DNA of 64,000 bases from Psammoneis japonica (Eukaryota). Positions 345 to 61,723 of the stretch are shown piece by piece. Location: contig QPGO01000010.1 of NCBI GenBank assembly GCA_008632985.1, positions 310,001-374,000 of the forward strand, read 5' to 3'. Every line of letters begins with the position of its first letter. Positions within the stretch are counted from its first letter, which is position 1. The notes under the pieces are model-generated. The model saw nothing but the letters and a program-made list of their open reading frames with translations, was not told the DNA's origin and made no database searches. The position numbers and the translations under genes were made by a program.

Positions 345-2299
345 CGCTTCGTTGCCGACATGCCGGTACGGTACATGCATGCTTCATGAAAAAAAAAAAA
401 ACAAGAAACAGCCATTCAGTGCAAGTGAAGCGTGCAATTGCATTGATGTTGACGTGTGTGTGTGTGTGATTTATTTCTGTTGTTGCAGTGAAAAGTGTGC
501 AAAATGCTGCTGTGAGTTGAGCATCGTCCCACGCTCGACTCATCAAAGCTCTGCCTGGCAAGGAGGTGTGGAGAGTGGAGGCACACACAGGCAGAAAGCA
601 GAAGCTGATCCAGATTCAATCACAAACAAGAAAATCACAAGCGCAAAAAGCATCAATGCACCACAGGACAATTGATGCTTGTCCAACAAAAAGCGGAGAA
701 GACCCAAATGTGTGGGAGCGAGGCAGCTCGCTGTGAGCAGCCCCCCCCCCCCCCCCCCCCCTTGGAAACATCACTTGCACAAGATGGTGCGTTGAACGAC
801 ATGCGCAATTTGCAGCAGATTGTGCCCCATTGTTGGCAAAACATCAGGTGCTCTTTGGCCCTTGTTGTGACAAAGCATGGGCTGCAGAGATGCCAGCAAG
901 AACATCCTGCTGTTGCTGAGAGCAGGCACACTGGCATGACTGCATGTCAGCTGCAAGTGAGCCTCGTGCATGTCAAAAACATCAAGCACTCAACTGCCCC
1001 CCAAATCATGCCCAGTGAGCAAACACTTTTGCTGCACAACATTGTGCGCTGTGAATGCAGCACCTGCACAAAGCTCTCTTTGTTTGTGAATGAAAATTCC
1101 TGGCGTGTGCACCCGAAGTGAGCCCACACAACTCATGTGACAAAACACTGTGCAGCAAAGTGTGAGCAGCAAAATCTTGGTCTCAGCCTCTGCCTTTGCC
1201 ATTTTTTGCAACCAAAGCTTCTGCTCAGCTTTGTGTGCCCCTGGGCATTTGGCTTTTTAAGACACACTGCCTTGCACAGCACCAATGGAGCAGCAATGGC
1301 AACTGGGCCTCTGCAATCAAACTTGCAGGCATGATGGAATCTGGCAAACAAATGAGCCATGCAGCTGTCTGCCTGAGAGCCACTGCCCTGCAAAATGCAC
1401 TCATGCACTGACAGCACTCCAAGCCAGCACCACCCAAAATGTTGCTTCTCTTAGAAACATTGCAGCAAGTGCAATTTGCACAAAATTGTCATTTTTTGTT
1501 CTCAACAACAGCTGCAAGTTGTGCATCAAAAGAGCAAAACACACAATGATGAAAGTGGGGCTCCTTTCTTTACAAAGTGAGGGGCAAGTGACACACTTTT
1601 TGAAGAGAAGAAGCACAAAAGCATGATGGCTGCCTGGCTGATGAATCATGTGCTTCTCTGTTTCTTTCATGTTCCCAACAAGCAGCTGCAACAAGGTTGT
1701 TGATGAAAACCAAACAGAGATGGGGGTGGACATGGCCCCAGCCAGGGCACCATGTTTCAAGCTGTGTGGTGGGCAGGGAAGGTGGGAAAAAGGGAAGAAC
1801 TTGGGGGCAACATTTCAAAAAAGGGGGGAAGTCATGTTTCATCTGGTGCAAGATGAAGGTCTTGGTTCCTTGGCACAAGCATGCTGGAGCATTGCACCAT
1901 TGAAATGCTGGCTGATGCAACATGCTCTTGCACTTGTTGCAGCAGGAGCACCCCCACTCCCTGGTGCATCCCAACAAAGGTTTTCCACATTTTTTCTGGG
2001 CTCATCCCATGCACACTCATTCATTTTCTTCTGCAGCGCCCTTTGGGTCAAGGGATCTAGAGCCATTGCCAGCTGGGTGGCTCTGATTTTGGGGCAACAC
2101 AAGACACAAACAAGAAGTTGCGGGTTGGCATTTTCCCTTGCCACAAGAAGTGCAAATTAATTGAAAGGCACACAGATCTTCTGTCCATCTGTCCTTTTGA
2201 CAAACATGATCTCGATCAATGCAAACCCCAAACAGCTGATCAGTCTCTGTTGGATCCTTCAAAAGGCCCAATGTTGCTGTTGTGACTCACCCATTTGGG

Positions 2300-2950
2300 T
2301 GATGATGTGACATTGGTTGCACCACAGGCTCAAAACTGAAGAAATTGAGCATCACACACAAAGTTGATGCTGCCACATTTGCCAAAAATGAAACAACTGA
2401 CAACAATGTGCGGTCTTGCTTTCCCATCACAATGTTGTTGTCCAAGTCCACTCTGAAAGCTGCCTTCACCATCTGGGCTCTGCTGGAAGCTTTGCCCAGA
2501 TTGCTCAGGCAAAGCAATGCAATTGCAGCCAGCTCTTTTTGACAGATCACAATCAGCTGCCATTTGTGACATGAACATGCCAAATGGATTCTCCAAGCCA
2601 AAGCACCTTGACCTGAAACATGGCATCCACCCCACCACATGCTCTCCCAGCCTGGCAAAGGTGCGCTCAACTGCTGGAAGTGCTGCTTCATTGCTTGTTG
2701 CAGTGCTGCAATCACTGTTGGAGCTTTTGGCAGATCCACTGCACTGAGGATGGCCAAACAACAGAGACTTGTCAGAGTGACACCAGAGCTCTTGAAACAA
2801 CACCAGATGCTTCCAAAGGACAAAGGACACAAATGGAAATGCCATGAATTTCCCACACTTGCTGCAAGACAAAGGCAACCTTGCCAACCATGTGGTGCTT
2901 GCAACATCACTCAATTGATCCAGCTTGAGACCACCCCAGGGCTCCTGGTG
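2300..2950 (-). mobile_element. Possible highly decayed reverse-transcriptase remnant (Gypsy/DIRS-like)
   Basis: Across frames the fragments AVDLPKA, RCFGLENPFGMF and RVDLDNNIVMG occur in the order expected for the RT motifs DLxxAY, MPFGLxNAPxxF and YLDDIIV. Weak similarity, judged by eye only. Confidence 0.3.
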
Positions 2951-4238
2951 CCTTTTGTGTTGACAATGCTCTGTCATTGTTGGCTGTTCAACAATGACAG
3001 AGTTTGATTTGTTTGTTTCAATCCATTCCAGTTGCACAAGGAAACCAACAAAAGGGGAAAAAAGGGATTCTGGATGTTCGACAATGTTGCACTTTGGGGA
3101 TTCAGAGGGTGCGCAACATGCTGCTTGATTGCAAGTGCAACCAAATGCAAAAGAAGCAAGCATTGGGCAGTTTCTGTGCACATGAGACTCTTGAATTGTG
3201 CTCATGCAGGTGTCGGGATTCTGGCTCCTCATGTGTGGATCCATTTCAAGTCAACCACAATGCAAAATGGAGTTCAAGCACTTTCATTCTCTGCCTCCAC
3301 AACTGCAAACATGGAGGTGCAATGACACTGCCAGAAGAGCTGTCTGGGAGAGAGAAAGTTCCAGCCAAGTGGCGCCACATTGTGGCTGGCTGCTGCTTTC
3401 CCCCCATTTTTGTCCACACCTGGGAGATGAGGTTCAGAGCATTCCAAAGCTTCTCCTGCAAGGCACAGTGTTGCCGCAGCATGAGTTCCAGCAACTTGTT
3501 TCCAGCCTTCAAAGGAAGTGTCTGGCATTTGTGCCATGACTGACAGAAACAAAAATGAGGCTTGAATTGACCAATGCTTGAATTGGTTCCTAAAATGAGG
3601 TGAGGTCAGCTTGCTGCTCTCCAGATGTCAGCATTGCAGCTTTTCCTTGTTGGTTCACAAATCCGTTGCTGACATTTGCTCGTGCCCTGTTGAGCGGCAA
3701 TTGTTTTTTTTGTTCTTGAAACAAATGCCTGCAATGGTTGGCTTTGCCTCGACGATCAGCGAGGGGGGCAAGGGAATTGTTCAACAACTGTCAAGTGAAC
3801 AACGAGCTCATGAAAACAGGGGACACACTTGAACACTTGTCAATGAGTTTGCAAACTTTGTCATTGCTGCTGGTTCAATCAAACACTCAACAAAAATGCA
3901 CCCATGTCATCTGTTCCCTTGTTGAGGCTGGTGGGTGCCACTCAAAAACATGATTTGTCACCTTGTCTTTTGACAAACCCACGCAACAAGTCGCACCACT
4001 CAGAACAGCATCTGAAAGCAGATGGACAGTTTGTGGTTGCTGCTCTCCAGATGCAATCCAAAAAAGCCACGTGATGAACAAAAAAGTGAAAAGTGCCCAG
4101 AGTTGCAGGAAGTTGTTTTGAGCCAACAGAGCATGCAGTTGATGCACTCAGAAAGAAGTCAATGACTCCAAGATCAGCTCTTCTCCCAGACTTGCAAAAT
4201 CAGCACAGTGGAAGCCAAGGATTGTCAGCGCAAATCCA

Positions 4239-4460
4239 TTTTCTTGCATGAGAGGTGTTCTCAAAACCAGCAGCTCTCCAATCTAAAACAAAGAGTTCAG
4301 TGCAAGCAATGCCTGCAATCTCAATTGGGCTGCAAAAAACTCTGACACTGGCTTCTCAATCTGCTCAGGGGCATCAGCCAGAAGATGCAAATCTGATCAA
4401 CTTTGTCATGGATCACATTCTTCAAACAAAAGTCTTGACAGTGCAGCTCCGAGTGACTCT
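4239..4460 (+). repeat. TpA/CpG-mutated copy of a sequence also present unmutated at about 42562-42750
   Basis: Shared blocks: ttttcttgca(TG/TA)agagg(TG/TA)tt, cag(CA/TA)gctctYcaatctaaaacaa, and aagatgcaaatctgatcaactttgtcat. Confidence 0.85.
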
Positions 4461-6266
4461 GGGGCCCTGGCAAACTGCGCACATTGTTTTTTGGGAAAAC
4501 AGGCGTTGTGCAGCTGATGCAGTCATGCAAGTGAGAGGCAGTTGTCGTGTGCAAGTTTCTCCATCTGAGTGCACAAAATTCAAACAGATCATGGCACCAC
4601 AATCAGCAGTGTGTTGGCAGGGTTTGTTGTTGTCTCATCAGCTTGATTTTGACAGTCTCTGCAGGTGGCAGGTTGGCACGCTGTCAGGATGAGTGGGGTC
4701 CCACCAAATTGGGGTCCCTCAATGTCTGCAGAGGGACAGACCTGCACCATCCTCCCACTTGGGTTGTCCGGAGCTGATCTGGGATGAGGGAATGTGGGAA
4801 TGTGGTCCCCCCTGAGGCAACAATGGGTTGTCCAAACCACTGTGATGCTCATTCTCATGTTGACACAGCTGCATGCTTCCAAATGTGGTTTTTGTCACTT
4901 GTCTGACAGTTTTGACACCATCTTGCAAAGCATTGCCTTGGCTTCTTTGCCAAGTGGTCTGTTGCATGACACAATGAAGGGAGCAAAATGATGTCATTGC
5001 TCAAGACAGGGCTTGAGGTGCTCGTGCTTTTTCTCACATTTGTGGTCTGCTGGGACCTGGAGTTGCTTGGAATTCCCAAGATGCAACCAGAAGGGTTGAC
5101 AAGAGGTTTGTTGCATGCACGGCTACAGGAAGGTTTGCAAGCCTTGCCAGTTGGGTCACCCAGGTTGTCATGCCCTTCATCATGTCATGAGACAACTCTG
5201 GGCCTCCCTTCTTGCACTGAAGGGTGTGCTTGTTTGACAGCTCTGGCCTTGAGGTTGGGCAGACTGGTCCAGAGGATCGTTTCAAGGGTCTCACAGCATG
5301 CTTTGACTTTTTGTTTGGCTGTTTCTTGTTTTGCTTTGCACACGGTGTGCTTGTGGACTGCAGAAGAGAGCTGGGGGTGGCCACAGAGTGAGTTGATCAA
5401 GCGGGTGCATGTGAGAGTGCCCACTTTGCAGTCATGAGCTGCAAACTCTGTTGGATGAGGGATGGACAATCCAAAAAATTGATTTGGAGGGCAGATGGGG
5501 CCAGTCTTGGGTTGCAGTCAGCCAAGGTCTCATGGATTGGCACTGGCAGAAAGTTGTGCTGCACCATGTGCTCTGCTTCTGCAAACAATTCGCTGCAGTC
5601 CTTGACTGCATGCTGAGTGCACTGCCACTTGGGTGTTGCAGAGACTTCTGCAGACTGGCACAGGCAGTCTGAGGGTGGTGAACCACAATCTTGGCAAGTC
5701 CTTGGATGACCGATGTCCATGACTTGGCTTTTTCCATCAGCCAATGGTTGCATGCATTCGTCTCACCAACAAAGCCTCTGAGGCAGAAACTGCCAGAGAC
5801 TTGACAGTGAAGCCAAGGTCTCCAAAGTGTGCTCCAGCATTTTCCAGGTTGCACTCTGGGACTGCCAGGATGTTCTTGGAGTTGTCAGCAGGGCAGCATC
5901 CATGCTTGGGCCCTGGGCTTGGAGAGTCAAGAAAAAACCTGCAGGATGTTAAATTTTCGCACTGCTGCAGAGTCATCAGCAGCGTGCTGAGGGTTGAATG
6001 TGTCATTGAAGCATTTGTTCAACTCCCAGTCCAGTGGAAGAAGTCCCACCAGCCCATGTGCTGCCACACCAAGCAGGTCACCCTGCATGATGCCTTCTTT
6101 GCTGAACAAAATGAAGGCAATTCTGATGTTCCCGCAGATGAGCAAGATGCTCCAGTGCTCACAGCTGTTGAAGGTGAACCTTCTTGTTGCACTGCATGGT
6201 CAAAGGTGTCTGGTGTTGCATGATGCTGAGATCCTGTTCTCTTCATTCAACCCACTGGAGGTGACA

Positions 6267-6743
6267 TGCAATGTGCAGCTGCCAATGAGAGCCAACGCAT
6301 CACGGCGATGTGTTGCAGCCTTGAAATTCACAAAGGGCGTGACAAAAACAACCTTTTGTCTGCATGCATGCTGCACTGTGAATTCACAGCGGAGTGGTTC
6401 ATCGCAACCATCAGGCAGGAGGCCAGGGGTTCGAAACCCTGAGTGGGAGTTGTCTGCAGCAACGTTGATCACTGTCGAACGCGCAAAACTCTGTGCAGTT
6501 CTGTGTGTTTCTTCGTGCGCACCCACACTGTTCCGCCAAAACCGTTCAGTGTCAGCACACATTGGCAAAGAGCCGCATGGATGCGTGACACATGGGGAGG
6601 AGTGCAACACACAGCTGCTGACAAGAGTCAATGCATCACGGCGACGTGTTGCAGCCTTTGAATGTGTCACAGCGACGTGTTGCAGCCTTCAAATGTCACA
6701 AAGGGCGTGACAAAAACAACCTTTTGTCCGCATGCACACTGCA
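6267..6743 (+). mobile_element. TRIM-like miniature LTR retroelement (477 bp) inserted in the CRE-type RT
   Basis: Direct repeats 6267-6375 and 6603-6743 (the second has an internal duplication of about 31 bp), each bounded by TG...CA. Purine tract GGGGAGGAG at 6594-6602 abuts the second repeat. 4-bp TSD GACA at 6263-6266 and 6744-6747. Removing the insert restores the RT frame (LFVVTSSGLNEEN). Confidence 0.8.
6387..6438 (+). promoter_or_regulatory. tRNA-type RNA polymerase III internal promoter (A-box and B-box) inside the TRIM
   Basis: CAGCGGAGTGG (6387-6397) matches the A-box TRGCNNAGYGG apart from T>C in a TpA. GGTTCGAAACC (6428-6438) matches the B-box and lies within a CAGGG/CCCTG stem. 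Spacing is tRNA-like. Confidence 0.55.
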
Positions 6744-8354
6744 GACAACAAAAAGAGACCCCCCGCAGTCATTTTTGAATTTGTGTTGCTGCCAGAGCAT
6801 GCTCATTGCATGGACAGCACCTTCCATGCCAGTGCATGACTGGTCTGTCCCACAAGCTTCTTTGGCCTCTGCTCCTGCAACTGGGAGAATGGCTTTGGTG
6901 GTGGCTTGTTGCCATGCCCCCCCCCCCCCCCCCCCCCCCGACTGGGCACGCACTCAGATTTTTGTCCAGTGCAATGAGCTGCTTTGCCATGATTGCACGG
7001 CAGGCAGCCCACAGGGGTGACTCATTTGCCAGCCAATTTGTGAATGCACGCAACACTTCTCTGAGCAATCTGCTGGCCTTTCCATGATGGAGAAGCCACT
7101 CTGATGCTGTGTCAGCATCAGATCTGCCAAGTTCTGTGCTCCCAGATGGTCTTCGCATGAGATGGTCTTGACAGCACCATCTCGGTGGCAAGGATGTCTT
7201 GAAGTTCCGGTGGCTCACCAAACTTGTGAAAATGGTTTTCATCCAGAATTCTCAGGTTTGGATGTTTCTGCTGAAGTGCCTCAAACGCTGTGTCATTGGT
7301 TTTTTCATTGATGTCATCCAGTGCAAGAATTTCACCTTTTTTGCATTCAGAAATGCAGCCAGCCACTCCTCTTGGGTTCCTTTGAGCGCCATTCTGTTGA
7401 ATGGCTTGGCAAGCTGCTCAGGTGTCTCTTCTCTTTAAATGGTCTTCAGGTTTGCTTCAAGTTGCTGCTCTGGTGACTGGACCAGCATTTTGTGCTCACT
7501 TGCACCCCAATTGTCCATGCACATGCTGAGCAAAGTTTCAATGTCCTTGGCTCCTTCTGCACTGCAATCCTGCTGCAAAACAGCCATTTGGTGCACTGCA
7601 AACCTTTCCAAGTTCCACTTCCACATTGTGATTCCATGCAGCAGCTCTGCCAATGTTGCAATGAATCATTTTCCAACTGAGCCCTTTGGTGCATCACATC
7701 ATTGCATGGGTGGGGCGCTGGCCGGCACCAGTGCTCTTGCCATGCGTTGTCATTCAACATTCCACCACCCAGCTCAATGCCATCACTGCGATGATGTGTC
7801 TTGCCATGTGTCTCATGTGTGGTGTGCTCTGCTTCTGAATTGAAGTTGTTGGGTGTGGCGTTGGTGTTGTCAATTGACAGAACAACAGCCCCTTCCAAGA
7901 AGCCTTCTCTGTCCTCCAACTGTGCACTCCCCCCTGTGGCAGCATCAACCTCCTCACCATCTTTGCCCTCGCCAATGTCTGTCTCTTGATTGTTGGGTGC
8001 AATGTTCTCTTTGTTGGCTTTGGTGTCAGCCTTGTCTTTGTCTTGTTTGTCAGTGGCACCAGGGGTGTCATTGACAAATTGACAAATTTTTGGTTGAAGT
8101 GGACTGGATTCTGGGGAGGTCAGAAGTTTCTGCAGCTTCTTGTCCAAATTTCTCTCTGTCATGCTTGAGCCACAAGTTGGGAGTCCTTCCTTGTTCATGC
8201 ATTTGCAGAAGCAAACACAGGAGGCACATGGTTGATCATGTTTGCAGCATGATGAACAGCTGTGTGTTTGGCAGGTTGATCCCAAGGTGCCATTGCAGCA
8301 CGTCTTCCCACCAAATCTCTTTGCTTGTTCTTCCTCATTGGTGTGAAGGGCAAG

Positions 8355-8700
8355 TGTTTGAGTCTCCACTCTTGAAGCCACCTCCTGTGCCCTTCACACA
8401 CTCCCACCTTTGAAGAACATGCTTCTTGAGATTGTGCCCATCCTTGATGTCTCTCAAGACCTGCAGACCTCTGTTGGTGCCCACGTGTTTGAGGACAACC
8501 AAGGGGCTCACCATCTGGCTGCCAACCACTGCATCACAAATCACACCAAGAATTTTCTTGTCAAGTGGCATTGGCTCTGGTCTCACTGTGACAAGTTTGA
8601 CATGTTCAAGGTGGAATCAGCTGATCAACTCACTGATTTTCTGACAAAGCCTTTGACCAGAGAACTCTCCGAGAACAACAGATTGAAGGTTTGGGGTTGG
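8355..8700 (+). mobile_element. Ty1/copia RNase H fragment (decayed)
   Basis: VFEDNQGAHHLAANHCITNHTKNFLVKWHWLW...VESADQLTDFLTKPL...GW matches the copia RNase H C-terminus (EDNxxA, RTKH, QLADxxTKPL). A purine tract GAGACAGAGAGGG lies downstream at about 8842-8854. Confidence 0.75.
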
Positions 8701-9507
8701 CAGATTTGTGCTGGAGTGGCATTCCCTCATTTGTCACATGTTGTGGCTTGGTCAAAGTGCAGGAGCTTTGCTCTGAACTTGTGCCAATTGTGCAAGCTTT
8801 CTTGTTTGCAGCTTCTTTGTTGGTTGCTGGAATCTGTGAATGAGACAGAGAGGGTCGTGGGTCATCTGTCCACGGCCCAAATTCCCGTGTGTCTGTTCTT
8901 CCATCAACGGAATTCTCGTTGAAATTCTTTTCATGCCACGTCAACACAGAAACTCAAGTCCATTGCTTTGAGGATCACAGGCATTTCATGGATGTTGGGC
9001 CAACCACAGATTGGTTCAGCAGCACTTGGATGATTGTTGAGAATGTGGTCAGCCCCGAAACTTGCACTGGTCTCTGGCACAAGTGTGCGGGTGACCACTG
9101 AAGTTGTGCACTCCGCAGATTCAGTTTTGTGCAGCTTCCAATCTGGTCACCAGTGGTTTTGTGAAAGACTTTTGACTGGACTCTTGTCACCACTTCTCAG
9201 TGGGTGCTGTCCACTTGTGCTCTGTCTGAGGCATTGGCTTGCCGCGTTCTTCACACTGGCAATTGGTGAATTTCATGCTTAAAGTGCAGTTGGCTGTGCT
9301 GCACATCATGAAAAAGACAAGCATCAAAGGCTTCACCAAACAAATGGTGCTGTTGCAAACTCTCAATTGTGCATGCAACGCCTTTTGGTGATGGCATTTC
9401 CATGATCTAAAGTGGCTGTTTGCTGGTGACCACTTCTGCTGTTGGTTTTTTCTGAACTGCAATGCATGACCAACCAAAAGGTGACACTGCTGTGTTCCTG
9501 CTGCCAG

Positions 9508-10557
9508 TCACATCACCGCCACCAGTGCAACATTTTGCCACATTTGTTTGTGTGATGAAAATGTTGTTGTTGCACTGCAAAGGGTTCTGACACACCCATT
9601 TGTTTGAAGCAGCCAATTCAGAGAGCCTGTTTTCTTCATCCTTCTTGACCCGTTTGGCCCCTTTCCTTCTTTTCTTCTTTGTTGCACGTCTCTCTCTCTC
9701 TCTCTCCCATTTTGCTTTGTCCATTCTTGTTGTTCATTTGAGGGTTCTTGTCTCTTGAATGCATCTGAAGCTGTGTCATCCTCCCCCATTGGACTTGCTT
9801 CCACTTGCGCTGCAATCTTGTTGGCATCTGGAGAAGTGCCTTCCTTCTCTTTTTGACCTGCTGCCACTGTTGGATCCACTTTCCTTGCAATCTTGAACAT
9901 GCTGTGTGTTGCATTCTGTTGATGGAATGACATCCAAAAGACATCCTGTTTTGCACCTTCATCCCAGCAATTCAGCAACTCCCAATCCCTTTCATCAAGC
10001 TTGACACAGTGAAGACAAGGCTGAGTGTCCATCAGGATGCCATTCTCTGCAAAACATGCCACTGCATGTTTGACTTTGACACCATCTTTGTCCAAAAAAT
10101 CCATGATTGCAAGACACATTCCATCTTCTTTCAGAAGCAAAGCCAGTTTACTTTGGTGTTCGTGGGGGCCAAGCCTTTGCACAAAAAATCCTTCACTCTC
10201 AAAAAACCAAGTGAAGTTCTTGGGCAACACCCGTTTGCATCTCAGAGCCAATTTGTTTTGGATCACCATTTTAGAAATGTGCAGTTTCTCTCTCTCCTTT
10301 TTGTTGGGGGAGCCATGCATTTGAGAACATGAATGCAGTGTCCAGAGTGCAACATCCCACCGGCACGTGAAGTTTGTTGCAGCAAAATCCATCTTCTTTA
10401 GCCTCGGCTGGGGACAAAATTCTGGCACCCACAACTGCATTGTTTCTTTGTTCCCATGTTCCTTTCTCAACTGTTTGGCAGTTTTGTTGACAGGACAATG
10501 AGCAACCAGCTCAGTCCCTGGTGGCAAAATCAGATGGACCCCCCAAGCGCACGCCAC
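9508..10557 (-). pseudogene. Remnant of a coding sequence of unknown function inside TE block A
   Basis: 349-codon open frame with globular-looking segments (TNFTCRWDVALW; KHAVACFAENGILMDTQP) and a charged tail. It has no Tyr. ORF length is weak evidence here because TAA/TAG stops are depleted. Confidence 0.35.
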
Positions 10558-42083: not shown

Positions 42084-42089
42084 TCATTG

Positions 42090-49624: not shown

Positions 49625-52262
49625 GCTTTTGCGGCAATGCTGTAAGCAGCAGTTGTTTTGTTTGTTGACGTGGTGCGATGATTTGTGATTGTGTTCATTT
49701 CCATCTTCATTCACATCATTCGCTATTCTGGAATTCAGTGTTCAGCGTCTTGCGGTCTGTCGTCGACATGATGTTTTGGACTATTTATTTCAGTGCTGAT
49801 CACCTGCATGTTGTGCCATGGATTCGTCGTCGTCGTGTTTGCTTGTTGTTGGGGAGTTACAAGTGTTCTGCCAAACTGACGGAGTAACAGAAGAATGTCC
49901 ACGACAAGCCACATGGGGTTTAATTGAGCCATCTCAGTGCTAAAGTGGCCAGCTGCAATGCTCTCTGGCAGAGAGAAACAGAAGATTCGCAATTCTTGAG
50001 TTTGTCTTTCTGACGGCACCAAGCTCTGTCCACCCACCTTTTGAGGTGAAGAATCACCTGGCTGGATGAAAATGATGTTGAACACCTTCTTCAGCTGAGC
50101 AACAAGTCTCCTGTCAGAGTTCTTGGGCTTGTCTTGAAGTTGGCCTTGAGCACGTGGGTTGGCGCACCAGTCAGGATCAAGAAGCAGACGAAGCTGTGAT
50201 GGTGGCAAGGCAAGCCCAGTGGAAAACCGCAATGGGATTTTCTTCACTGGCCACAGATGATTCCTTGTGAGTGGCCTCTTGCTCCCAGTCATTGCTCTCC
50301 ATGGAGGTTGCTTTTCCAACATGCAGTCCTCCCAAGGCTGGGATGCAGCACAGCAGAGCACAAATCCACACACAGTGTTGGGAGACAACAAAAATCACTG
50401 CAGAAAAACATTTGCCTGCCTTCAACAAAAAGCTGTCTTGGAGGGTGCATCTTGTCTAAAAGGACGAGAGAAACACAGCTGCAAATGAGGCTGTTGCACA
50501 TTGTTTGCAATCAAATTGCACAGAATTGACATGACAAAAGTGCCAAGAAGTCTTGACTCATCAGAGGAATGGTGCAAAAGAGCTGTCATCTTAGTCAATG
50601 ATGGCTTGGATTGCAATCATCCACATGGAAAAAACAGTTGATGTGGTTTAGAACATGTGACGACTGCTGTGGAGGTTTGCTGTTTTGGGAACTCAAAGAA
50701 AATTTGGTGAGAACATCTTGGGCACAAAATTGCATGGAGGATGAAATGCACACAGCCATTGGAGATGAGAGCAACAAGAAGAATCACCATGAAATGTTGA
50801 AGGCACAACAGAGCACCCCCCCTCCAACACCTGTGGCATCTCAGTCATGGCACAACTGCCTGACAAATGTTCCAAACAAGTGTCCCAGGAGGTCAGCACA
50901 ACACCAAACTCCAGTGTGGGGCAGTCCTGTGGGGTGCAGAAAAGCAAATGCAGCCAAAACAGCTGGACCAGCACAACTGACAATGAGCTCAACATGCAGG
51001 AGTGACTGTCAACAGCTTGCCATTCCTGGTGTTCTAGCCATGACCTTTTCTCCAGTCCATTTCCAATGACCTTGATGCCAAACACTCCCTTGATTTTTTT
51101 GGGATGATTGCAGTGAGAGTTGACCCTCATTCTCTGCTTGGTGGTCATGGCATTGGCAAGCCTCAGATTTTAGCAACAAGCAGACCTTCCAGGGCACAAT
51201 GCATGGCATTGTTGCCCTCCCACTGCCAGCAGCTCATTGAAAAAGGACAAGCACCATCTGCTGCAGTCGTGCAGATGTCTTAGAATGAAAACAGTGCAAG
51301 TTAGAGAGTTGCCAACAAGAAAGGCAAGCAGAGCCATTGAGCAGCTGAGGCAGTGCAGAGCTGGTTTCTCTTGAGTTCTTTGACTGTTCAGGGCACTCCC
51401 GTGCTTTGTGACAAACACATTTCAACTTGTGGGATTGTCTTTTGCCATCAACATGATTGTCTCTCACTGTCACAACAACTGCCACAAAGTGTGGAATGCA
51501 CCATTTTTGATTGGCTTGAGGTCACTTCTTGTTGATCTGTCAACTCAAGCAAACAGCTGCAAACAAGCACCACTGTGCTTCATCCAAAACAGATGTGTGC
51601 AAGCTTGAGCTCAGTTGCTGCACCGATGAAAATGCTGAGCTCATCCTGGAAGGTTGCACTCATGGAAAATCAATGATCTTCAGGCTGTTGCAAAGTTTGC
51701 CGGCAATGCAACCTGCCAAACAAGTTCACCACAGCACCAACAAGAGTGGAGTCAAATCCACTTGCTGGAAGTGATGGGCTGTCATTGTGCAGAAAAGTCC
51801 AATGAAGGGACTGTGCAAGAAACTGCCAATTGCACAAATTGTCTTCAGCAGCAGGAATGTGAAAACAAGATCCAAAGAAACAGATGAGAGGAGACATGGA
51901 AGAAGAAAAAGCCCGCAGTGCCAGAGTGCATGAAAAGCTTTCTGGAAAAAGTGCCCAAAAGTTTTTCTGACCTGGACAAGAATGAGACCATGACAAGTCT
52001 CTGGCACCCTCCTCCCCGAGAAGAAGATGCACTTGAGGTGGTTTCTCAAGACAATGCAAAAGTCTGCTTTGCTCACAAGGAATCATGGTCACAGTCATGA
52101 GAGAGTGGCTGTGTTGATGGCTGTGACAAACCTCAAAGTGTTTGTCCTTGTTTGTTTCCAAGTGGCTGAAGATTTTGCTCATGTGCACACTCACTTTAGA
52201 AGTCAATCATTTGTCCATTTGGGGAGAGCCAATGCTGGCATGTGGTTTGTTGAAGTTTGCGG

Positions 52263-52538
52263 TGATAGAAATTGAAGGCAAATGGCAAGAATTCAAACAA
52301 CAACTCCTCACTGCTGTCTAAACAGCAGATGAGTCTCCGCTCAGAGACCGTCACAGGAGCCGAAAGACATGCAAGTCGGCACAATTGGGCTGCTGTTGTC
52401 ATTCTTGTGAGCCTTGTGGCTCGAAAGCAAACTACATCGCGCGTGAACGCGCGGAACTAAAGCACACAAAACTGTGCGCGGCAAACTAAACAGCGCGCGA
52501 TGCTTCGCGCGCATCCAAATCCTGTTCAAATCCTGTCA
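52263..52538 (-). repeat. 3' LTR of the copia element
   Basis: tgatagaaattgaagg...tcaaatcctgtca; aligns without gaps to 58921-59196. Confidence 0.95.
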
Positions 52539-52539
52539 C

Positions 52540-55500
52540 TCCCCAGTTTGCTTGAGGAGCCACAGAAACAGATTCGACTTCGGATGGAATGAAGTTCCAG
52601 AACATGAGGGGTCGGAGAAGGTCCCAGATTTGGGAGTGACCCCAATGCTTGCTGAGAATGTCAGCAGGGTTGCGGGAGCCTTCAATGAAGTGGAGCTCAA
52701 GGCAACCAGAGGCAATTGCCTCACGCACACGGTGGAACGACAGTGCGGTGTGTCGCTTGTGTAACTTGGAGTGCGGGATGGTGGCACTGTCTACAACCGA
52801 CTTGTTGTCACCGAACATGCAACTGACATTGCGGATCGGGACGCCAAGGTGGCGCAGGGTGATGCGCAGGTCGACAATCTGCTCAACACAATTCCTTGCG
52901 GCAACAAATTCAGATCCGCAGGTTGCAGTCTCCACGGTGGCTTGTTTCTTGGAGAACCAATCAGCCGGGAATTTGTTGAGGAAGTGGAGCATTCCCATGA
53001 CAGAGCGTCCGGTGAGCATGCAATGGTGCAAGTTTGCATCGACGTGGTGGGTGGCAGTGACAAACTTGCCAAGGGGCGGTGGAGCGTCCTTCGGGATCAT
53101 CTCTTCTGCTTCACCACACACGGAATGCATCCATTCGCAGGCCGGAGCAGGGAGATCCGAATGGTCGGGCTCTTCCGTGCGAACGCGGAGAGCACCGTGT
53201 CGCATCTTGGAGAGGCACCCACAGACGCGTTTGGCACGATCCAAGTGGCCTTGACGGGGCGCAGCTCGGAAGCTAGAGAGTGACATGACGGCCGTGGTGA
53301 TGTCAATTCGACCAAGGGACACTGCCCATTGGAGTGAACCAACAAGAGACTGGAACTTGTGAATGCCATCGGGTCCCAGCAGTTCGGAAGTGTCCAGTTC
53401 GGGGTGGTCACCCTTCTCTAGAGGTGACAGGGCGTTGGTGGTGGGTTTCTCCCCAAACAGTCGGGCGCAGCTGTCGACCATGCGCTCGATGTACTTGCGC
53501 GGAGACAGGCACAAGGTTCCGTCGGGGTCCCGGGAAAAGTCGCAACCCAGATGGAACTCAATGGGTCCCGCACCCTTGAGCTTGAACTTGCACTTTTCCG
53601 TGAGAGTGTCGACGAAAGATTGAGGGTCCTTCATGGCAATGGCGAGGTCATCCACATAAACGGCAATGTGTTCATAGTGGTCGCCGTTCCTGCGCATCCA
53701 AATGTCGGGTTCGGCGTGGCAGGGGAAGAAGCCTTCAGCTCGCAGGCAGTCGGCGAAGCGCTCGTGCCAGCGGAGACCGGAGCTGCGGAGTCCATACAGT
53801 GCCTTGTGGATGACAAGGATGTGTCCTTCGAGTTTGCCAAATTCGGGTCCAGCCACAATGTAAAGCTTCTCCTTGGTGGTGGCTTCAAGGCAGGCATTGC
53901 CAATGTCGGTGGCCCATGTCTCCAGCTCGTTGAGTTCGGCCAGGAAAATCATCAGCCGAAGGCCACGAAGGGAGACCACTCCGGAGTGGACACTGTCGAC
54001 AGGTGCGTCCGTGAGGTGCCCGTCGGCTGCGAGTCGTGCCTTGTGGCGACCGTCGTGTTTCACGTCGCACACCAGGTGCACTCGGATCTTCTTGTGTCCC
54101 GCAGGAGGAGTGGAAGACTTGAAGGGCCCGCAGTCATGGAAGACTTCGTATTCATCGAGTTGGTCCATCTCGAGATTAGTTGCGTCTCCCCACTTGCGGT
54201 TGCCGTTGCGTTCGTCCAGTGACATGGCGTGTTTGTAGTTCCGGGGAACTTCGCATCCGCACTTGCAGCGAGGTGCAGTGCGGAAGGAGCGAAGCTTGGC
54301 TTGGTTGGCCATGCGAAATAGCTTCTTTTGGCGCCTCGCGATGGTGCGGAACCGCTTCCATCCATCCGTGTCGAGGAGTCCGTTCTCTCGTGCATAGATG
54401 GCACAGGTGACGGGGTCGTCCTTGGCGATGATGGCAAGAGGCTCGGACGTGATCTCCCCACTTTCCCATTCAAGCATGATGTTGTAGCTTGAGCCTTTCC
54501 AGGTTGGGTCGTGAGGCTTCAGAGGGCCTTCGTGTGACACGATGCGTCGAAATTTCCAAACAGTGGTGTCTTCGTCTTCTTGCTCAATGTGATTCATGAT
54601 GTCATTGTGGGCAAGGACTTCCTCGTATTCGTCATTGTTGACAGAGCAGACGAACTTAGTGAGCTCGGGATTGCCGTTCACTTTCCATTCGTGGTCTTCG
54701 ACGGCCTTGACGATGCGAGCTCTGTGGCGTTGTCCGTCCTCTTGTGGCTGCATGAGGAAGGTACGTCCAATGATGTCTTGCGGATCGAAAACTGGCATCT
54801 TGGGTGTCCTGATCTCCCCATCAGGAGAATCGACGGGGTTGTCGTCATGGCGAGATTTGATGATGGGTTCAGGTGGCTCCCCATCAGGAGGATCAAGACG
54901 CAGGTTTCGAACGGCAGGATCGGGGGTGGCGGAGCGAACGTTGGACCGGCAGAGGATCTTCTGAGTCTCGTCAGATAGAATCTTGAAGGTCATCTGGTGG
55001 CCGACGTGCTCAGCAATGCCAACGAAGCGTCCACGCAACTCACGAGATTCGGACGGCCAATCGGAGTCATCGAGGTGGAAGTACACTGGTTCCCACCAGT
55101 GAAAGCGAAGCAATGGGCTGATGTCCGGGGTGGATCCAGTGAGAGTCTTGAGGGGCGTGCGCCAGTGGAGACGTGGGGACGCTGCATGGTTGAGTGTGAA
55201 GCACACGCACATGAGCGCCAGCAGCCATGTGTGGGCGGGCGAACCAAAACGGTCCATGACAGTGTTCGCCATGCGCTTCACAGTCTGGTGTTGACACTCG
55301 GCAAAGTTTTGGTGTTGCTGGTGAGGCTCACTTTGCCAGCTGGAGATGAAGAGGGCGCGTAGGATCCCGAGCACTTTGTTGCTGATCTCAACTTGAGCAC
55401 GGTCGCTAATGAGTTTGGATGGGGCACCACGTTCACGGATCTGATCCTCGAGTGTGTTGACAAACTCTTTGTCCGTCTCAGTGCCGCAGACGTCAGTGAC

Positions 55501-56330
55501 GGTAGACTCGGTGCCAACAAACAGTTGGGCGCTGGTGCAACCAGAGTCGACGGCCGGGGTGTCGGCACAAACGGTGTCAGTGGCGATGGGCTCGTTGCGA
55601 CGGTGCACATTAAGGGCGGGGTTGGGTGATTTGAAGGCCTTGCGAAGGTGTGCACCGGCGGGCATGCGGGTGTACTGCGTGGTGCAGTCAAAAGTACGAC
55701 GGACCGCATTGGCAGGTGGGAAGCCAAAGCAAGGCCGAAGAGACTCGAAGGGGGGGTCCTTGGGCTGTGCAGTGCGCTCCGGAGGTGGAACGTCATCGCC
55801 CTTGGGGTCAATCGCACGCAGATGACACTCGTGGAACACGTCGTCGTTCGGAATGAGGTGATCATCGAGGGCGGACGCGTGATCGGCAGACAAGGAAGCG
55901 GACAAGATGGTCTCGTTGACAACGACACGGTGACGGCAGTTGCCGCATTCGTCAAACAGGTTGGCAGTGGGATCGTCCTGTGGGTCAGAGATCGCGTCGC
56001 ACCACTGGTCATCGTCAGTGACAGAGTGATCGAGGACGGAAGGGTCCCATGTGTCATCACCGGTGAGGATGACGTGGGGCAGGGTGTCCCATTCGGCGTC
56101 AGTGTGGGGTCGCATGGCAACACAAGGCAGGCCAGCCTTGATGTCAATGGGGATGACATGGCCATCAGGAGTGGCGGTGCGTTGCAAGCCGTTGGGCACC
56201 TTGACAGAGCGATCGTTGACATCCTGTTTGTGCCATTTGAGCTGGCCGCAGGAATGGATGGCAGACGTCGTCGCCAGCAATGCCGCCGTTGGCCCCACGA
56301 TCGACTAGAGCGCCAGTGCGTGTGGAGCGA
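52540..56330 (-). pseudogene. pol: Copia pol (protease, integrase, RT, RNase H), inactivated mainly by missense changes
   Basis: LVDRGANGG (PR); IATDTV, LISDRAQVE and SEPHQQHQNFAE (IN); KARLAADGH, DIGNACL, KALYGLRSS and YVDD (RT); GSEFVAAR, MFGDNKSVV and NPADILSK (RH). Frameshift near 56300; 1270-codon open frame with only about 12 Tyr. Confidence 0.9.
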
Positions 56331-56599
56331 TGAGCAGAGGCAGAGCAAATGACATTGTGGTTGTCAACGCGGCGGCAAGTGCGGCCGTCAAGTTCTGTGT
56401 CATCTGCAGAAGCTGGCGGGGTAGAGGAAGCGGCGGATGGCCCCGGTCGACTGGCATTGGGGGCTTGGTTAGGAGACAACAGACGTTGCAGATCACCGGG
56501 TGGCAGTGGCTTGCGCTTGGTGAGGTGCGCCAGGACAGGATTGTCCGAAATGGCGCCCACATGTGCAGCGGAGTCACCACAGTCAGCAGGAGTCGTGTT

Positions 56600-57997
56600 G
56601 GACAAGTTGACATCACCGTCACTCCCAAGGTGTTGGTCGTGAAGGTTGGCCGTAACAGACTCATGGCAGTTGCTGGCTCACGGGTTGCAGGGAGGCGGAC
56701 GAGAGTGCTCAAGGATGATCGCCTTGGAGGAATCGGGCAACGAATCCCAGAGCCGTTGGTGGTCGGGAGGGAGACGTCTCCATTGGACACCGGCGAGGCT
56801 GGGACCACGGGTGCAGGCAGCATTGGCTTGAAGGACGTCAACGTCGCTGTCAATGTCGCAGAACACATGGTCGGACGGTTCCTCGGAGTGGACGTCGTGT
56901 GTGCATGTGGCGCGTCGGGGAGCTCGAGGTGTCGTCTTGGGTTGAAACGTGCTGTCGCACTGAGCTGCCGCGGAGAGGAGCAAGCCACAGCATTGATCGT
57001 ATGTGAGGCTCTTGCCACTCTGCGTGCGATGCTGATCAGCTTGGTTCTTGACAGCACGGAGTTCCTCGACAGGGTGCACGGCATTCTCGAGCATGATGCG
57101 CTTCTGTCCTTCAGAGAAGTGGTCGCTGGCGGGGATGAGTGCCTCGTGCTTGCGCAACTGATCTTGCCAATGAAGGATGAACCCGTGGGTCGGACCTTTC
57201 CAAGTGCCATCACCAAGACGTGCGGTGGTGAGGTGCGTGAGCAGGGTGGAGGACTCGACAGATGCATGGGTGGAGGCAAGCGCGCATTCAGACAAGGAGC
57301 GGCAGACGGTCTGTGCGTCAGAGGACCCCACATTTTCGCGAATGAGAGCCTTGCCCTTGTCGGTGAGAAGGATGCGTTCGAAGACGGCGAACATGCACTT
57401 TTGCTGTTCAGCAAAGAGCAGTTTGTCTTCGGGGCTGGTCGGTTTGTACGACGAGTCTAGAATGCACTCGACGTCTTGGGCACGGGCTTGTGCCACAAGT
57501 GAGGTGTGCCAAGTGTGCCACTGCTTGTCGGATTTGAGAGCCGTGAAAGCGGTGGGATCACGCTTGATGCCTCGCTTGAAGTCTCGCACCGGGTCGCGTG
57601 CCTTGGTCGGGTTGGTGACATGTGGAGGTGCAAGGGGTGAGCTGCCGATGGACAGAGAGGACATGCAGTGCGGGCTGAGGCGGCAGGCAAGGAACTCGTC
57701 ATGCACGAACAAAGAGGAGTCGTTGGCAACGTCAAGACCTTTGTGTGCTTTGACAATGTACAGGCCAACCAGTGCTGCTAACATGTTCTTATAACCACGG
57801 GGCAAAGGGATTACATTGGTGCCGTTGTCGCACTCAAGCGAGTCGATTTGGGACGGTGTGAACGTGAATGGTTCCTGATGCGAGTCCGTGCCGTCTTGGG
57901 CCAAAGCCAAACGAAGAGGACTCCCAGCACCTTGGGCAAGCACGGTTCCAACAACGTGCTCGAAACCATCGGTTTGTTGCTGACGAGTGAGAACCAT
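56600..57997 (-). pseudogene. gag: Copia gag
   Basis: MVLTRQQQ...DFKRGIKRDPTAFTALKSDKQWHTW...AQARAQDVECILD...MLENAVHPVEELRAVK, typical of CoDi gag. Frameshifted into the PR region near 56680. Confidence 0.85.
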
Positions 57998-58906
57998 GGT
58001 GGACAAAAGTGGTGTCAGGACAATCAACTCTGGTTGGGAAGCGAAGGTAGACTCGAAACTTGGGTGAGAATAGACTTGACTTGAAATCTTGAACTGTCTT
58101 AAAATCAGAAGTTGCCGGGCTTTGTCATCCCGTTCGTTGTCAAGTGCCAAACTTCCCACCCGGTCCGCAGAGTTGTGCCGGCACGTCCGAACCCGCAGCT
58201 GGTGGCGTTTTGGGTTGCTTGCGAGCGGAGTGGCGGGTTGTAAACCCCTGCAGGTAAGCTGACCAGAGGTGGACAAGACCCCCGAACCGTTCTTGTTTTA
58301 CATCGGTTGGATTTCCCGATCAGGCTGGCCAGTTGACGCAGGCGTCAGGCGCTGTGGACGAACGAACAAACGCGGGAAAGCACCCTCGCCCCAACGCAGG
58401 CTGCAATCACGGCTGCTTGCTCTCACAGTCGTCCTCGTGGACCTGGTGGAACTGCAGAGCACCAGCAGTCCGGGGCAGATCAGGTGCAATGGACTCGGTG
58501 TGCTTGTAGAGTGGCAGCAAAACCGCAGTCCGAAGAGTGGGTGCAGGTTCTTGGCCGTGAAGATGTGTGTGTGTGTGTGTGTCTTCAGCGACGAAGATCC
58601 TTGAACATGCAGGGTTCTTGACTGTTGACCAATGAACAGGCATGTCAAGGGATGAGGATCAAGGACAGACTTGGATGTGACCGTTGAATGTATGTCTTCA
58701 GCGATCAAAGGCAGCACAATCAAACCAGACATCCAGCGGTGAGGAGACTTGACGGTGACGTTAACTTCCTGCCGATGCCCTGGTGTTGGATGCGCGCAGA
58801 CTTGCCGATGTATGTAGAACATGTGCGGAGGTCCACGTAGAATTGAAACAGCGTCGTTGGTAAATCAACGACGACGATGGCGGTTGCTCAATGGGTTGAC
58901 AATGAG

Positions 58907-58920
58907 CAAGACTGTTAATC
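58907..58920 (-). other. Putative primer-binding site complementary to the anticodon arm of tRNA-Asn(GUU)
   Basis: The plus strand CAAGACTGTTAATC directly abuts the 5' LTR and reads as stem-CT-GTT-AA-TC. There is no canonical TGG PBS. Confidence 0.55.
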
Positions 58921-59196
58921 TGACAGAAATTGAAGGCAAATGGCAAGAATTCAAACAATGACTCCTTGCTGCTGTCTAAATGGCAGATGAGTCTCCGCTC
59001 AGAGACCGTTGCAGGAGCCGAAAGACGTGTAAGTCGGTATAATCGGGCTACTGTCATTATTCTTGTGAGCCTTGTGGCTCGAAAGCAAACTACATCGCGC
59101 GTGAACGCGCGGAACTAAAGCACACAAAACTGTGCGCGGTAAACTAAACAGCGCGCGATGCTTCGCGCGCATCCAAATCCTGTTCAAATCCTGTCA
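58921..59196 (-). repeat. 5' LTR of the copia element
   Basis: tgacagaaattgaagg...tcaaatcctgtca; 19 substitutions versus the 3' LTR by manual alignment. Confidence 0.95.
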
Positions 59197-61723
59197 TGCG
59201 GCCAGAGCCAACTCCTGTTGTTCTTGTGCATCATTTGCTGATTGGTTGCCTTTCCAGTCTTGATCCCCCACACACATGTCCAAGAGAACCATTTTGCTTG
59301 AAGTCTGCACACCAACCAGCCTCAGACCAACTGTCCAGAGATGGCATCCATGAGCACTCAAGGTGGTGACGGCAACCCTGGCAACAGCTGCAGGTTGTGG
59401 TGCAGCGCTGCTGACACCAGCCCACAACACATGGCTGGACACCAAGAGCAACAGCAATCAATCAAAACAGGGTTGTCATCGTGATGACACACCCAACACA
59501 GCCCAGAAAATTTCACAAAAAGAGAGAGAAGAGCAGCAGCTGCAAGGGTGCTGAGAAGCAACTCTTGTCATCACAGGACATGACAAGAAATCTTGCCAAT
59601 GTGACTCACATTGAAAGCCACTGGTCCTTTCAAAGAGAACAGACACAACATTTCCCTGCTCCTCTTTCTTCTTCTTCTCCTCCTCCAAGAAAGTCACCTC
59701 ATGTCCCCTGTGCTTTTGCTCATTTTTTGGGATGTCTCAAGTGTGCTTGCCTTTCCCTGTGTTTTTGGTTCTTTCCAGGGCAGCATCTCAACCATTGTGC
59801 AAAAGCTTGGGACCATCCTTGTGCTTTTGGCATGTTCACAATGGCTCTTTTGAAATGACTTGCTCAAAGCTGTCATGACCTCAGTCATCTGTGAGAACCC
59901 CATGTGCTGCAGATTCAAATCATTTCAACCAGCAACATCTCTTGCAACAAGGTTTTTTTGGCTTGCTGCAGTTGCTGGCACAAGATGTTGTGTTTTCAGG
60001 TTCCCACAAGATGTTCTTGGCTGCACCCACAATGTGCTCACCAGCTCCATGCACAAGCCATCTGGCTCAGGTTTGACATTGCCACACTGGGGACAGAGAT
60101 GCATTTTTTTCTCCCTGGTCATTCTCAGGTCTTGTTGTGGCGACCTTTGCTCCCTCTGAAAGAGCATGGGTGGTCTGTTTGGAGGTGCTCTTTGTCTTTG
60201 GTTTGTCTGTGTGCTTCCTGTCTGGGATTTTGCAGAATGACGCTGTGTCCTGTGACTTGGTGGCAGTCACAATGAGGGCCATTCTTTTTGCCTTGCTGTG
60301 TTTCTCATCTGTCTCACTGGCCATCCTCTTGGCATGTCCATGGCTGCCTCTCTGTCAAGCACAACACAGTGCATGTTGTGCTTTGTGTGGTGGCCACAGA
60401 CTTGAAGATGGATGAAGACAACATGGTTGTGCTGACTTGCTGTTGATGCCACAATCCTCCCGCATTTTTCATTTTGCCATCCAAATCAATCACAGCTGCT
60501 GACTCATCAATGGGCTCTTCTGCACTGTGGCTGATGGTGTGTTTCTTGACACAGCACTGGCCAGGTTTTTGAGCCAAGCCACCATTGCTGTCTTCATTTC
60601 TGCATGATTGGCAGCTTGTCTTGCCTTTGTTGTGGCTTGTTCTGCCACATTCATTGGATGGCCAGTTGGACAACTGTGTCTTGCTGGTGACTCTGGAAAT
60701 GCAGCAAGGCAAGCACATTGTTGGATTCCTCCAACTGCATTTTTTGTGTCTTTGTTGTCAATGTCTCCATCACAACTCTTGCTGCTTCTCATCACTTTCT
60801 GGTGCTCTGGCTGGTCACAAGCTCTGCATGTCATCTCTTGTGTTTTGCTGCATTTTTCTTTGTGACTGCCACACAATGTCTTCCAACATGGCATGTGTGC
60901 TGATGTTGCTGGGCAGGCCATGCAACATTTTTTTCATCCAGTTCGTTCTGCAGTTGATGCTGGTTTTGAATTTTTGTTCTGTGCTGTCTCCTGTGGCATG
61001 TGGGCACCTTGGGTGGCACTGCAATTGCCAAAAGCAGTGTCTTTTTTTTTCAGAAGTGCCTCCAAGCTTGGGGCACGTGAAGCAGTTGGAGGACATTTGA
61101 CACCCCGACTTGTCTGTTTTGATGTGACAGAGTCTGTGTTGCAGCAGGCTCACATTGAATTTCTTGTTCCTCTGCCAGTTCTTGCAGGAGTTGCTGAACT
61201 GGAATTTTGTTGTTTGACATTCCTCAGCTGCATTGTCACCCAACATTGACATCAAAGCATTTGCAGTTGACTTGGTCTAACATGTGCATCAACACAGCCA
61301 CCAAGTTCCGATCACTGCTTTTTGCTCTTTGTTGTTGACAACCATGGTTCATCATCAACATCATTGCATTCATCATGGCTGTCATCACTTTTTCAAGATG
61401 CAACAACTGTCACGACGCCTTTGGCAGTGATGGAAGACTTGCGGCAATTCCACCCCAAAAATAATGCAGACTACAGTGGAAACGGGACGATCTAACGACA
61501 CTTCCAGGTTCTAGGACAGCGTAATGCATGCACTCTAGAGAGACAGTGAGATCTCCGTCTTTCTATGCTAGCAATCTGTCTATCTCGCATGGAGCGTACT
61601 CCCTGAATGAAACCCACCTCAAGGAGAATTTTGCGCCATTCCATATCTCTAGTTTTTCCTCTTAACAATAATACCGGTAATAACATGGTAACTACTGTAC
61701 TTATGGCCGTGCAAAGAACCGTC

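Follow-up and report, generated by a model that had tools for sequence, protein, structure and literature searches.

In a 64,000-nucleotide stretch of the genome of the diatom Psammoneis japonica (contig QPGO01000010.1, positions 310,001 to 374,000; hereafter the window), three sharply limited blocks have lost nearly all of their TpA dinucleotides, and a Ty1/copia long terminal repeat (LTR) retrotransposon nested in one of them shows that TA was changed to TG or CA after integration, on chromosomal DNA in place. We interpret this as TpA-specific A:T to G:C hypermutation by a host process acting after integration, a reading that includes deamination as a possible chemical step and to which we assign a probability of roughly 0.8. 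TpA-targeted hypermutation is real and is new for diatoms, with one prior report from an unrelated alga.

Three sharply bounded blocks are depleted of TpA

To quantify the depletion, observed TA counts were compared with those expected from base composition, for each block and for the remainder of the window (Table 1; O/E, observed over expected). The depletion was confirmed as a real property of the three blocks, since 1-kb counts, the full list of TA positions and the per-block totals all agree. The longest TA-free run extends over 2133 nt (59145 to 61278). TG and CA are enriched in the blocks (O/E 1.3-2.1), and relative to the flanks the deficit of TA and CG amounts to 81.0 per kb and the excess of TG and CA to 75.5 per kb. 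Block edges are sharp to tens of bases: beyond 15985, 61462 and, leftwards, 49941, a TA is found every 10-30 nt, and at the right edge of block 1 the last in-block TA lies at 15625, with TAs spaced about 10 nt apart from 15985 on. These counts reproduce what the initial annotation of the window had described, namely three sharply bounded TpA-poor blocks (its boundaries lie about 10-135 nt from ours), no TA in 59197-61277 (we found none between 59146 and 61277), a single TA in 4286-5949 (at 5124) and plentiful TpA in the adjacent DNA (O/E 0.60 outside the blocks).

CpG is likewise scarce in the old block parts (O/E 0.11-0.25), unlike in the nested copia element (0.92). The loss of TpA extends to the very edge of the blocks, whereas CpG is retained in their outermost 100-400 nt, and stretches with CpG and without TpA were observed at 525-804, 15713-15964, 25819-25881, 27873-27923 and 61309-61442. 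Because CpG remains at these TpA-free edges, the two losses differ in their spatial limits.

Table 1. Coordinates and dinucleotide content of the blocks, the copia element and the duplicated sequences in the window.
Feature	Position	Strand	TA observed/expected	TA O/E	CG O/E	Remarks
Block 1	473-15984		33/1021	0.032	0.25	15.5 kb; origin not recognisable
Fragment in block 1	4239-4458	+				220 nt; TA-normal paralogue outside the blocks at 42562-42749
Old tandem duplication in block 1	10977-11462 and 11687-12166					span 10977-12166
Block 2	25767-27935		14/138	0.10	0.21	2.2 kb; intergenic
Block 3, left older part	49942-52262		8/161	0.05	0.12	block split by copia
Target-site duplication, left copy	52258-52262					TGCGG
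Ty1/copia LTR retrotransposon	52263-59196	-	67/329	0.20	0.92	nested in older TpA-free stretch (block 3)
LTR-A (3' LTR)	52263-52538	-				276 nt; TG...CA termini
copia pol open reading frame (ORF)	52486-56304	-				1272 aa; integrase/reverse transcriptase/RNase H part; RVT_2, E 5e-26
copia gag/protease part	56265-57997	-				different frame from pol ORF
LTR-B (5' LTR)	58921-59196	-				276 nt; TG...CA termini
Target-site duplication, right copy	59197-59201					TGCGG
Block 3, right older part	59197-61461		1/149	0.007	0.11	2265 nt
Window outside blocks			1479/2447	0.60		
Control duplicate	41450-42110					660 nt; 86% identical to 61693-62326; nucleotide-sugar transporter fragment; TA-normal
Control short tandem repeat	45208-45505					45208-45355 and 45362-45505; TpA and CpG normal

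The two LTRs of a copia element diverged at TpA after integration

The element in block 3 was assigned to copia on the basis of its RVT_2 domain, a collinear polyprotein match to the family hidden Markov model (HMM; model positions 1-598, then 645-1881), direct LTRs with TG...CA termini and an intact 5-nt target-site duplication; in tblastn searches, full-length copia polyproteins matched it at 59-66% identity. A single in-frame TGA (56678-56680) and, near 56265-56300, a single frameshift interrupt its gag/protease part. In contigs built from the reads of one public sample (four runs, X1-X4), the family is highly repeated, with a summed contig depth, which is not a copy number, of 67,000-145,000 against about 55-70 nearby, and its variable places comprise 598 with transitions versus 278 with transversions.

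When a retrotransposon integrates, both of its LTRs have the same sequence. LTR-A and LTR-B now differ at 19 of 276 positions, all of them of the type TA or CG versus TG or CA, with no mismatch of any other class. The 14 variable sites are made up of seven with TA opposite TG or CA, five CA-versus-TG doublets, as expected from two independent opposite-strand changes at one ancestral TA, and two CpG sites. When coded as purines and pyrimidines the pair is 100% identical over 277 nt, all 19 mismatches being transitions, and the number of A:T to G:C changes outside TpA is zero; an excess of TA>TG/CA over other A:T>G:C changes, which the initial annotation had proposed as a check, is hence what the LTR pair displays. 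Because the LTRs diverged solely at TA/CG versus TG/CA sites, the changes took place on DNA after integration, that is, on the chromosome in place.

From the ratio of one-sided sites to doublets we calculated by hand that about 65-74% of the susceptible TAs of each LTR were mutated after integration. The element as a whole has lost an equal share (20 of its 32 conserved tyrosines, see below; 67 TAs against 363 expected from relatives), and the copia was probably intact when it inserted. As the 276 nt contain no other substitution, a further hand calculation places the TpA rate at least about 200-fold above background, an indirect lower bound. At CpG, 2 of 21 LTR sites were changed, each in one copy (2 of 42 site-copies).

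Older duplicates in block 1 (Table 1) show the same changes. The copies of a tandem duplication differ mainly by transitions, with 12 CA-versus-TG doublets, and include segments that are 100% identical in purine/pyrimidine coding at a nucleotide identity of 0.77-0.88. In the 220-nt fragment the block copy has TG or CA at 8 of 8 sites, read by eye, where it and its TA-normal paralogue differ by TA/CG versus TG/CA. No TG/CA replacement pattern of the block type was seen among duplicates outside the blocks.

Loss of conserved tyrosines reveals the direction of change

For this comparison, the 1272-aa pol ORF was aligned with 22 homologues (about 60-67% identity), yielding 640 columns conserved at ≥80%, 32 of which are tyrosine. 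At these 32 columns the window copia has 10 His (CAY), 10 Cys (TGY), 2 Phe, 1 Trp and only 9 Tyr, and of its 72 differences at the 640 conserved columns 32 fit one step (27 TA>TG/CA and 5 CG>TG/CA). Tyrosine makes up 0.9% of its protein compared with 3.3-4% in each of 120 database homologues. Of the 68 Tyr positions of a full-length reference polyprotein (P0013), the window copia has Cys or His at 34, the median of 81 sequences (80 related metagenome loci plus the window copia) being 4%. The 80 related loci have a TA O/E of 0.33-1.15 (median 0.74) versus 0.20 in the window copia. Since the relatives keep both TpA and tyrosine, TpA poverty is not a family trait; the ancestral sequence had TA, which was changed to TG or CA. 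Four of the relatives (L004, L005, L045 and L062) have a CG O/E of 0.20-0.25, yet a TA O/E of 0.49-0.58, which indicates that CpG decay alone does not remove TpA.

Neither selection against UpA in RNA nor a composition peculiar to the family was accepted as an explanation, as the changes destroy conserved tyrosines and the relatives are normal. The latter had also been discounted in the initial annotation, which had in addition named active, intact copies equally free of TpA as an observation that would speak against hypermutation; the relatives examined have normal TpA and Tyr. Its central claim, a change of A to G (equivalently T to C) within 5'-TA-3' on both strands, is borne out by the replacement of Tyr with His and Cys, by the timing that the LTRs provide and by the 19/19 specificity of their mismatches.

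Surviving TpA sites follow a context rule

In the old blocks, 45 of the 56 surviving TAs lie in YTAR (TTAA, TTAG/CTAA or CTAG), for which 158.7 were expected from the flanks (28% kept), while 11 TAs survive versus 785.8 expected in all other contexts (1.4%). For copia, survival was measured against 79 related loci: ATAT has none left of 28.0 expected, ATAC, ATAA and ATAG survive at 0.12-0.15, GTAC, CTAC, GTAA, CTAG and TTAA at 0.21-0.25, and CTAA/TTAG at 0.37 (11 of 29.5 expected). The order of survival agrees between these two independent comparisons: ATA/TAT is lost first and YTAR is largely spared, CTAG less so.

Both strands were changed about equally along the pol ORF (16 TG and 11 CA events). 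Among its mutated Tyr codons, those after A are all CAY (3/3) and those after G all TGY (4/4), a small sample noticed post hoc; after C or T the outcome is mixed (6 TG and 7 CA). The LTR pair alone is strand-biased (LTR-A 10 CA to 1 TG, LTR-B 5 TG to 1 CA), in numbers too small to build on.

Host genes and the contents of the blocks

The transportin-like ORF at 30833-32671 has its best matches in diatoms, at 50-62% identity (match labels: Asterionellopsis-type transcriptome, Seminavis, Cylindrotheca, Thalassiosira, Nitzschia, Cyclotella and Pseudo-nitzschia), and the blocks are flanked by ordinary eukaryotic genes; the label 'diatom-like' of the initial annotation is therefore right.

Within the blocks, recognisable coding sequence is confined to the copia. 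A Pfam search of 11 long ORFs gave no credible match in the old block parts, and neither did a search of 137 ORFs (≥81 aa) of the non-copia block parts, in which two sub-threshold matches (E ~0.004-0.005) both fell among the 100 ORFs of block 1 and the 10 ORFs of block 2 were without any match. For a 349-aa ORF of block 1 (9511-10557, minus strand), phmmer against 1.84 billion proteins returned a single match (E 1.7e-4) and no real homologue. A second copia of the same family was not found by tblastn with three copia polyproteins or with the family HMM on six-frame translations, and self-comparison in purine/pyrimidine coding detected no LTR pair beyond that of the copia and no inverted repeats. 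Of the elements listed in the initial annotation (a CRE-type long interspersed nuclear element, two copias and a terminal-repeat retrotransposon in miniature), only one copia could be recognised by Pfam, tblastn, the family HMM and phmmer. Near-complete loss of TA and CG may have erased the similarity of the old block parts to known elements.

The limits of the TpA-free regions are sharp, which suggests that it is the inserted DNA that is recognised and speaks against a spreading domain; a non-host origin was demonstrated for the copia only, the other 22 kb not being recognisable.

Proposed mechanism and alternative explanations

In the process that we propose, a host activity would act on chromosomal DNA after integration, inside sharply limited inserted or non-genic stretches, and would convert the A:T pairs of 5'-TA-3' to G:C, the product being TG or CA depending on the strand changed. 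Its rate would exceed that of ordinary substitution at least about 200-fold, and it would go nearly to completion, preferring ATA/TAT and largely sparing YTAR. In coding sequence, Tyr codons would be removed (TAY to CAY or TGY), wrecking the proteins of the element. Decay of CpG (5-methylcytosine (5mC) to T) would proceed in the same stretches at a much slower pace, with TG and CA as the common sink of both processes. We infer that the process is enzymatic and serves as a defence. As its chemical step we tentatively favour, at somewhat below even odds, the action of a TadA/ADAT2-like deaminase that is brought to marked DNA and turns adenine into hypoxanthine.

Several points weigh against this interpretation. 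The 64-kb window contains no such enzyme, and the signature is not linked to any deaminase. The block DNA other than copia (about 22 kb) cannot, as judged by the searches above, be demonstrated to be transposon or foreign DNA, and the read test described below is not independent, the sample probably being the same as that of the assembly. No strand-coordinated tracts were found along the pol ORF (15 runs versus 14 expected, hand count) or in the old duplicates, and runs tests of the order of TG and CA in the blocks gave z values of -2.1 to +2.2, similar to the flanks; a processive single-strand deaminase is expected to leave tracts, so their absence counts against such an enzyme. Moreover, in the anticodon-loop-like substrate of TadA/ADAT enzymes the second base upstream of the target A is a pyrimidine, to which the sparing of YTAR is not an obvious fit.

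The missing tracts along the ORF would suit a mark that is placed site by site, as in an explanation based on thymine chemistry, in which a TET/JBP-type dioxygenase marks the T of TpA in mobile DNA as 5-hydroxymethyluracil (5hmU), perhaps oxidised further to 5-formyluracil (5fU). The oxidised base would now and then pair with G and lead to T>C. TA would become CA on the marked strand and TG on the other, and the mutation would be a side effect of a silencing mark. The outcome in the sequence is the same as that of adenine deamination, and all sequence results fit both equally. We know of no 5hmU in diatoms. A TC>CC signature was not seen, though no search was aimed at it. The explanation also assumes that 5hmU or 5fU causes enough mutations to remove 97% of TAs. 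In dinoflagellates 5hmU is enriched in repeats and is reported to prefer T in TA and TC (PMC11572971), and for Bigelowiella natans, a chlorarachniophyte alga with a comparable process, the authors favour deamination, without deciding evidence (bioRxiv 10.64898/2026.01.13.699255). On balance we consider thymine chemistry unlikely as the source of the signature, although for the chemical step it has to be taken seriously as a rival.

A mechanism triggered by duplication as such, in the manner of fungal repeat-induced point mutation (RIP), would be in line with the high repetition of the copia family in the reads (summed depth as above). However, the 660-nt duplicate at 41450-42110 and 61693-62326 is unaffected, and the stretch at 44668-46001, in which the summed contig depth rises to 1,849-7,864 as compared with about 55-70 nearby, escapes hypermutation with a TA O/E of about 0.57. 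Thus the trigger is not simply repetition, the spared cases being 660 nt at 86% identity and a short repeat, none of them both long and near-identical. In B. natans the main target is single-copy (bioRxiv 10.64898/2026.01.13.699255). The direction of change is also opposite to that of RIP, and we regard a trigger of this kind as improbable.

Still less weight is given to the absence of any dedicated system, with TpA slowly removed in heterochromatin by a general bias, be it of repair, of replication or through GC-biased gene conversion. The old blocks are CpG-decayed, hence old and probably heterochromatic, and contigs of run X1 differ from the assembly, perhaps between alleles, at 42 letters in ~4360 within the blocks and at 4 in 3070 within the flanks, an approximately sevenfold difference in density. 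The higher density in the blocks fits continuing turnover or allelic divergence via unstable TA and CG intermediates. A slow general bias is contradicted by the young copia, in which about 80% of the TAs are gone and the LTRs carry no other substitution save at 2 of 21 CpG sites; A or T outside TpA would be expected to change too, the block edges are sharp to tens of bases, and CpG-decayed relatives elsewhere retain TpA. We judge it very unlikely.

The possibility that modified bases in transposon DNA were miscalled, the true DNA still being TA, would account for a pattern confined to regions likely to carry DNA modification, and the reads come from runs whose library type is not on record and probably from the sample that was used for the assembly. 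Known DNA marks (5mC, N6-methyladenine and 5hmU) are copied faithfully by polymerases, which counts against miscalling. For run X1, contigs were put together from exact 31-letter words. At a word depth of 52-70, a value typical of single-copy sequence in this run, they reproduce the old TpA-free parts of block 3 as pieces 430-1620 letters long, each of which has 2-20 other letters. In the left part they span 48993-50615, 50691-51229 and 51369-51796 (3, 6 and 2 other letters, respectively), and in the right part they cover 59197-60189 and 60268-61044. The listed differences are CA>TG doublets at 50354/5, 50809/10 and 51181/2, and none restores a TA, so that the outcome which the initial annotation had associated with an artefact, reads showing TA, did not appear. 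Strand-specific miscalls should have produced two conflicting versions at each TA, about every 25 nt, and shattered the contigs. The process in B. natans was measured on Illumina data (bioRxiv 10.64898/2026.01.13.699255). Because the X1 contigs reproduce the TpA-free sequence, a base-calling artefact is unlikely, and we would place it slightly below a general bias. Runs X3 and X4, which have small shares, contain copia only.

Least probable of all is editing of RNA or cDNA before integration, by an ADAR-like A>I activity on double-stranded RNA or a cDNA deaminase: ADAR-type enzymes do prefer a 5' U and animal retroelement copies have reportedly been edited before integration, but 12 TA-derived sites, five as CA-versus-TG doublets, now separate LTRs that were copied from one template and started out identical, the non-copia fragment and the tandem duplication of block 1 show the same changes, and the 65-74% of sites mutated after integration already match the loss of the whole element.

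Relation to known systems

Among defences against mobile DNA that work by targeted hypermutation, only fungal RIP and animal APOBEC/ADAR are well established. In the animal systems, deaminase-driven clustered transitions inactivate retroelements at the level of RNA or cDNA before integration, so that the LTRs stay identical. In P. japonica, by contrast, the LTRs diverged after integration, and the changes of APOBEC are C>T/G>A, not A>G/T>C. With fungal RIP the process has in common a dinucleotide-specific transition hypermutation of chromosomal mobile DNA, a loss of coding capacity and sharply bounded blocks of odd composition. It differs in that RIP, by changing C to T chiefly at CpA, adds TpA, the very dinucleotide that is lost here as CpA/TpG is gained, and in that RIP requires duplication and a premeiotic stage, while TA-normal duplicates are spared in the window. 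Decay of methylated CpG similarly leaves CpG depleted and TG/CA enriched in the same stretches of the old blocks, but it cannot remove TpA, which is lost first here (CG O/E 0.92 and TA O/E 0.20 in copia), and it is the slower of the two (2 of 42 CpG site-copies versus 65-74% of TpA sites per LTR).

Within the literature collection searched there was no report of TpA-targeted hypermutation in diatoms, only fungal RIP papers and one preprint on B. natans (Mettrop et al., bioRxiv 10.64898/2026.01.13.699255). Among 231 mutations that arose in two integrated viral regions of this alga, in mutation-accumulation lines sequenced by Illumina, 230 were A>G or T>C, these AT-to-GC mutations are reported on TpA, and rates were about 1000-fold over background, in some lines only. 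TpA-poor, CpA+TpG-rich windows cluster, TpA-poor coding sequences are enriched in reverse transcriptase and DDE domains, the targets are integrated nucleocytoplasmic large DNA virus (NCLDV) and virophage DNA, and an ADAT2-like deaminase is proposed only; the words diatom, stramenopile and CpG are absent from its main text. The initial annotation knew of no described pathway of this kind; this is outdated, since TpA-only A/T>G/C hypermutation was measured there in 2026. Judging by the pattern of changes, the process in P. japonica would be of the same kind: both comprise TA>TG and TA>CA only, on both strands, in delimited regions and far above background. The hosts differ (a rhizarian chlorarachniophyte there, a diatom and thus a stramenopile here), and the demonstrable target here is an LTR retrotransposon. 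In the preprint, the O/E in the NCLDV region is 0.45, compared with near-saturated values of 0.007-0.10 in the old blocks; its Results and Discussion contain no flanking-context rule that we could see, whereas a context rule and a parallel CpG decay are found here. The rate was measured in mutation-accumulation lines there and estimated from an LTR pair here.

The 5hmU of dinoflagellates offers a second comparison. It is a thymine-directed mark of transposons in a microalgal lineage, preferring T in TA (and TC), it silences transposons, and its inhibition activates the marked ones; it is an epigenetic mark, not reported as a mutational signature (PMC11572971).

Should our interpretation hold, diatoms would possess a dedicated DNA-editing defence that recognises new mobile DNA, with limits sharp to the base pair, and erases TpA, and with it the Tyr codons, before ordinary substitution sets in. 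Such a system would be common to diatoms and Rhizaria, either as an ancient defence of the SAR group (stramenopiles, alveolates and Rhizaria) or through repeated origin, and the context rule would be the fingerprint of an adenine deaminase or a thymine oxygenase. We regard the chances of this wider picture as evenly balanced. The diatom case means that the process is peculiar neither to one alga nor to viral insertions, the context rule is a constraint that any candidate enzyme must reproduce, and the question moves into a group with genetically tractable species. Later polymorphism in such regions would appear as CA-versus-TG doublets, with TA and CG both draining into TG/CA. Regions from which TpA has been erased would lose protein similarity, as with the 137 ORFs lacking a credible Pfam match, so that the content and age of transposons would be underestimated, and dating by LTR divergence would be wrong unless TA and CG sites are masked.

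Additional observations

Metagenome locus L038 (1-2561) has the lowest TA O/E of the 80 related loci (0.33), and 9 of its 30 reference Tyr are Cys or His. It may represent a weaker form of this process in a different organism, but was not counted as a second case, its surviving TAs showing no enrichment in YTAR (9/46, the share in the other loci being 18%). Just at the left boundary of block 1 (385-470), 13 consecutive A (~386-398) and a (TG)n tract (~455-468) may mark the end of an element, although no element was identified there. The duplicate at 41450-42110, which is fragmented into short ORFs, copies the 3' part of a nucleotide-sugar transporter gene (62070-62867, minus strand), and the intact gene starts about 230 nt past the right edge of block 3. 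Run X2, which scarcely covers the blocks (a gap that carries no evidence of its own), is probably an RNA run, as its contigs look spliced: at 46332/46435, 48403/48454 and 62663/62756 they skip about 50-100 nt in the manner of spliced transcripts, marking three probable introns.

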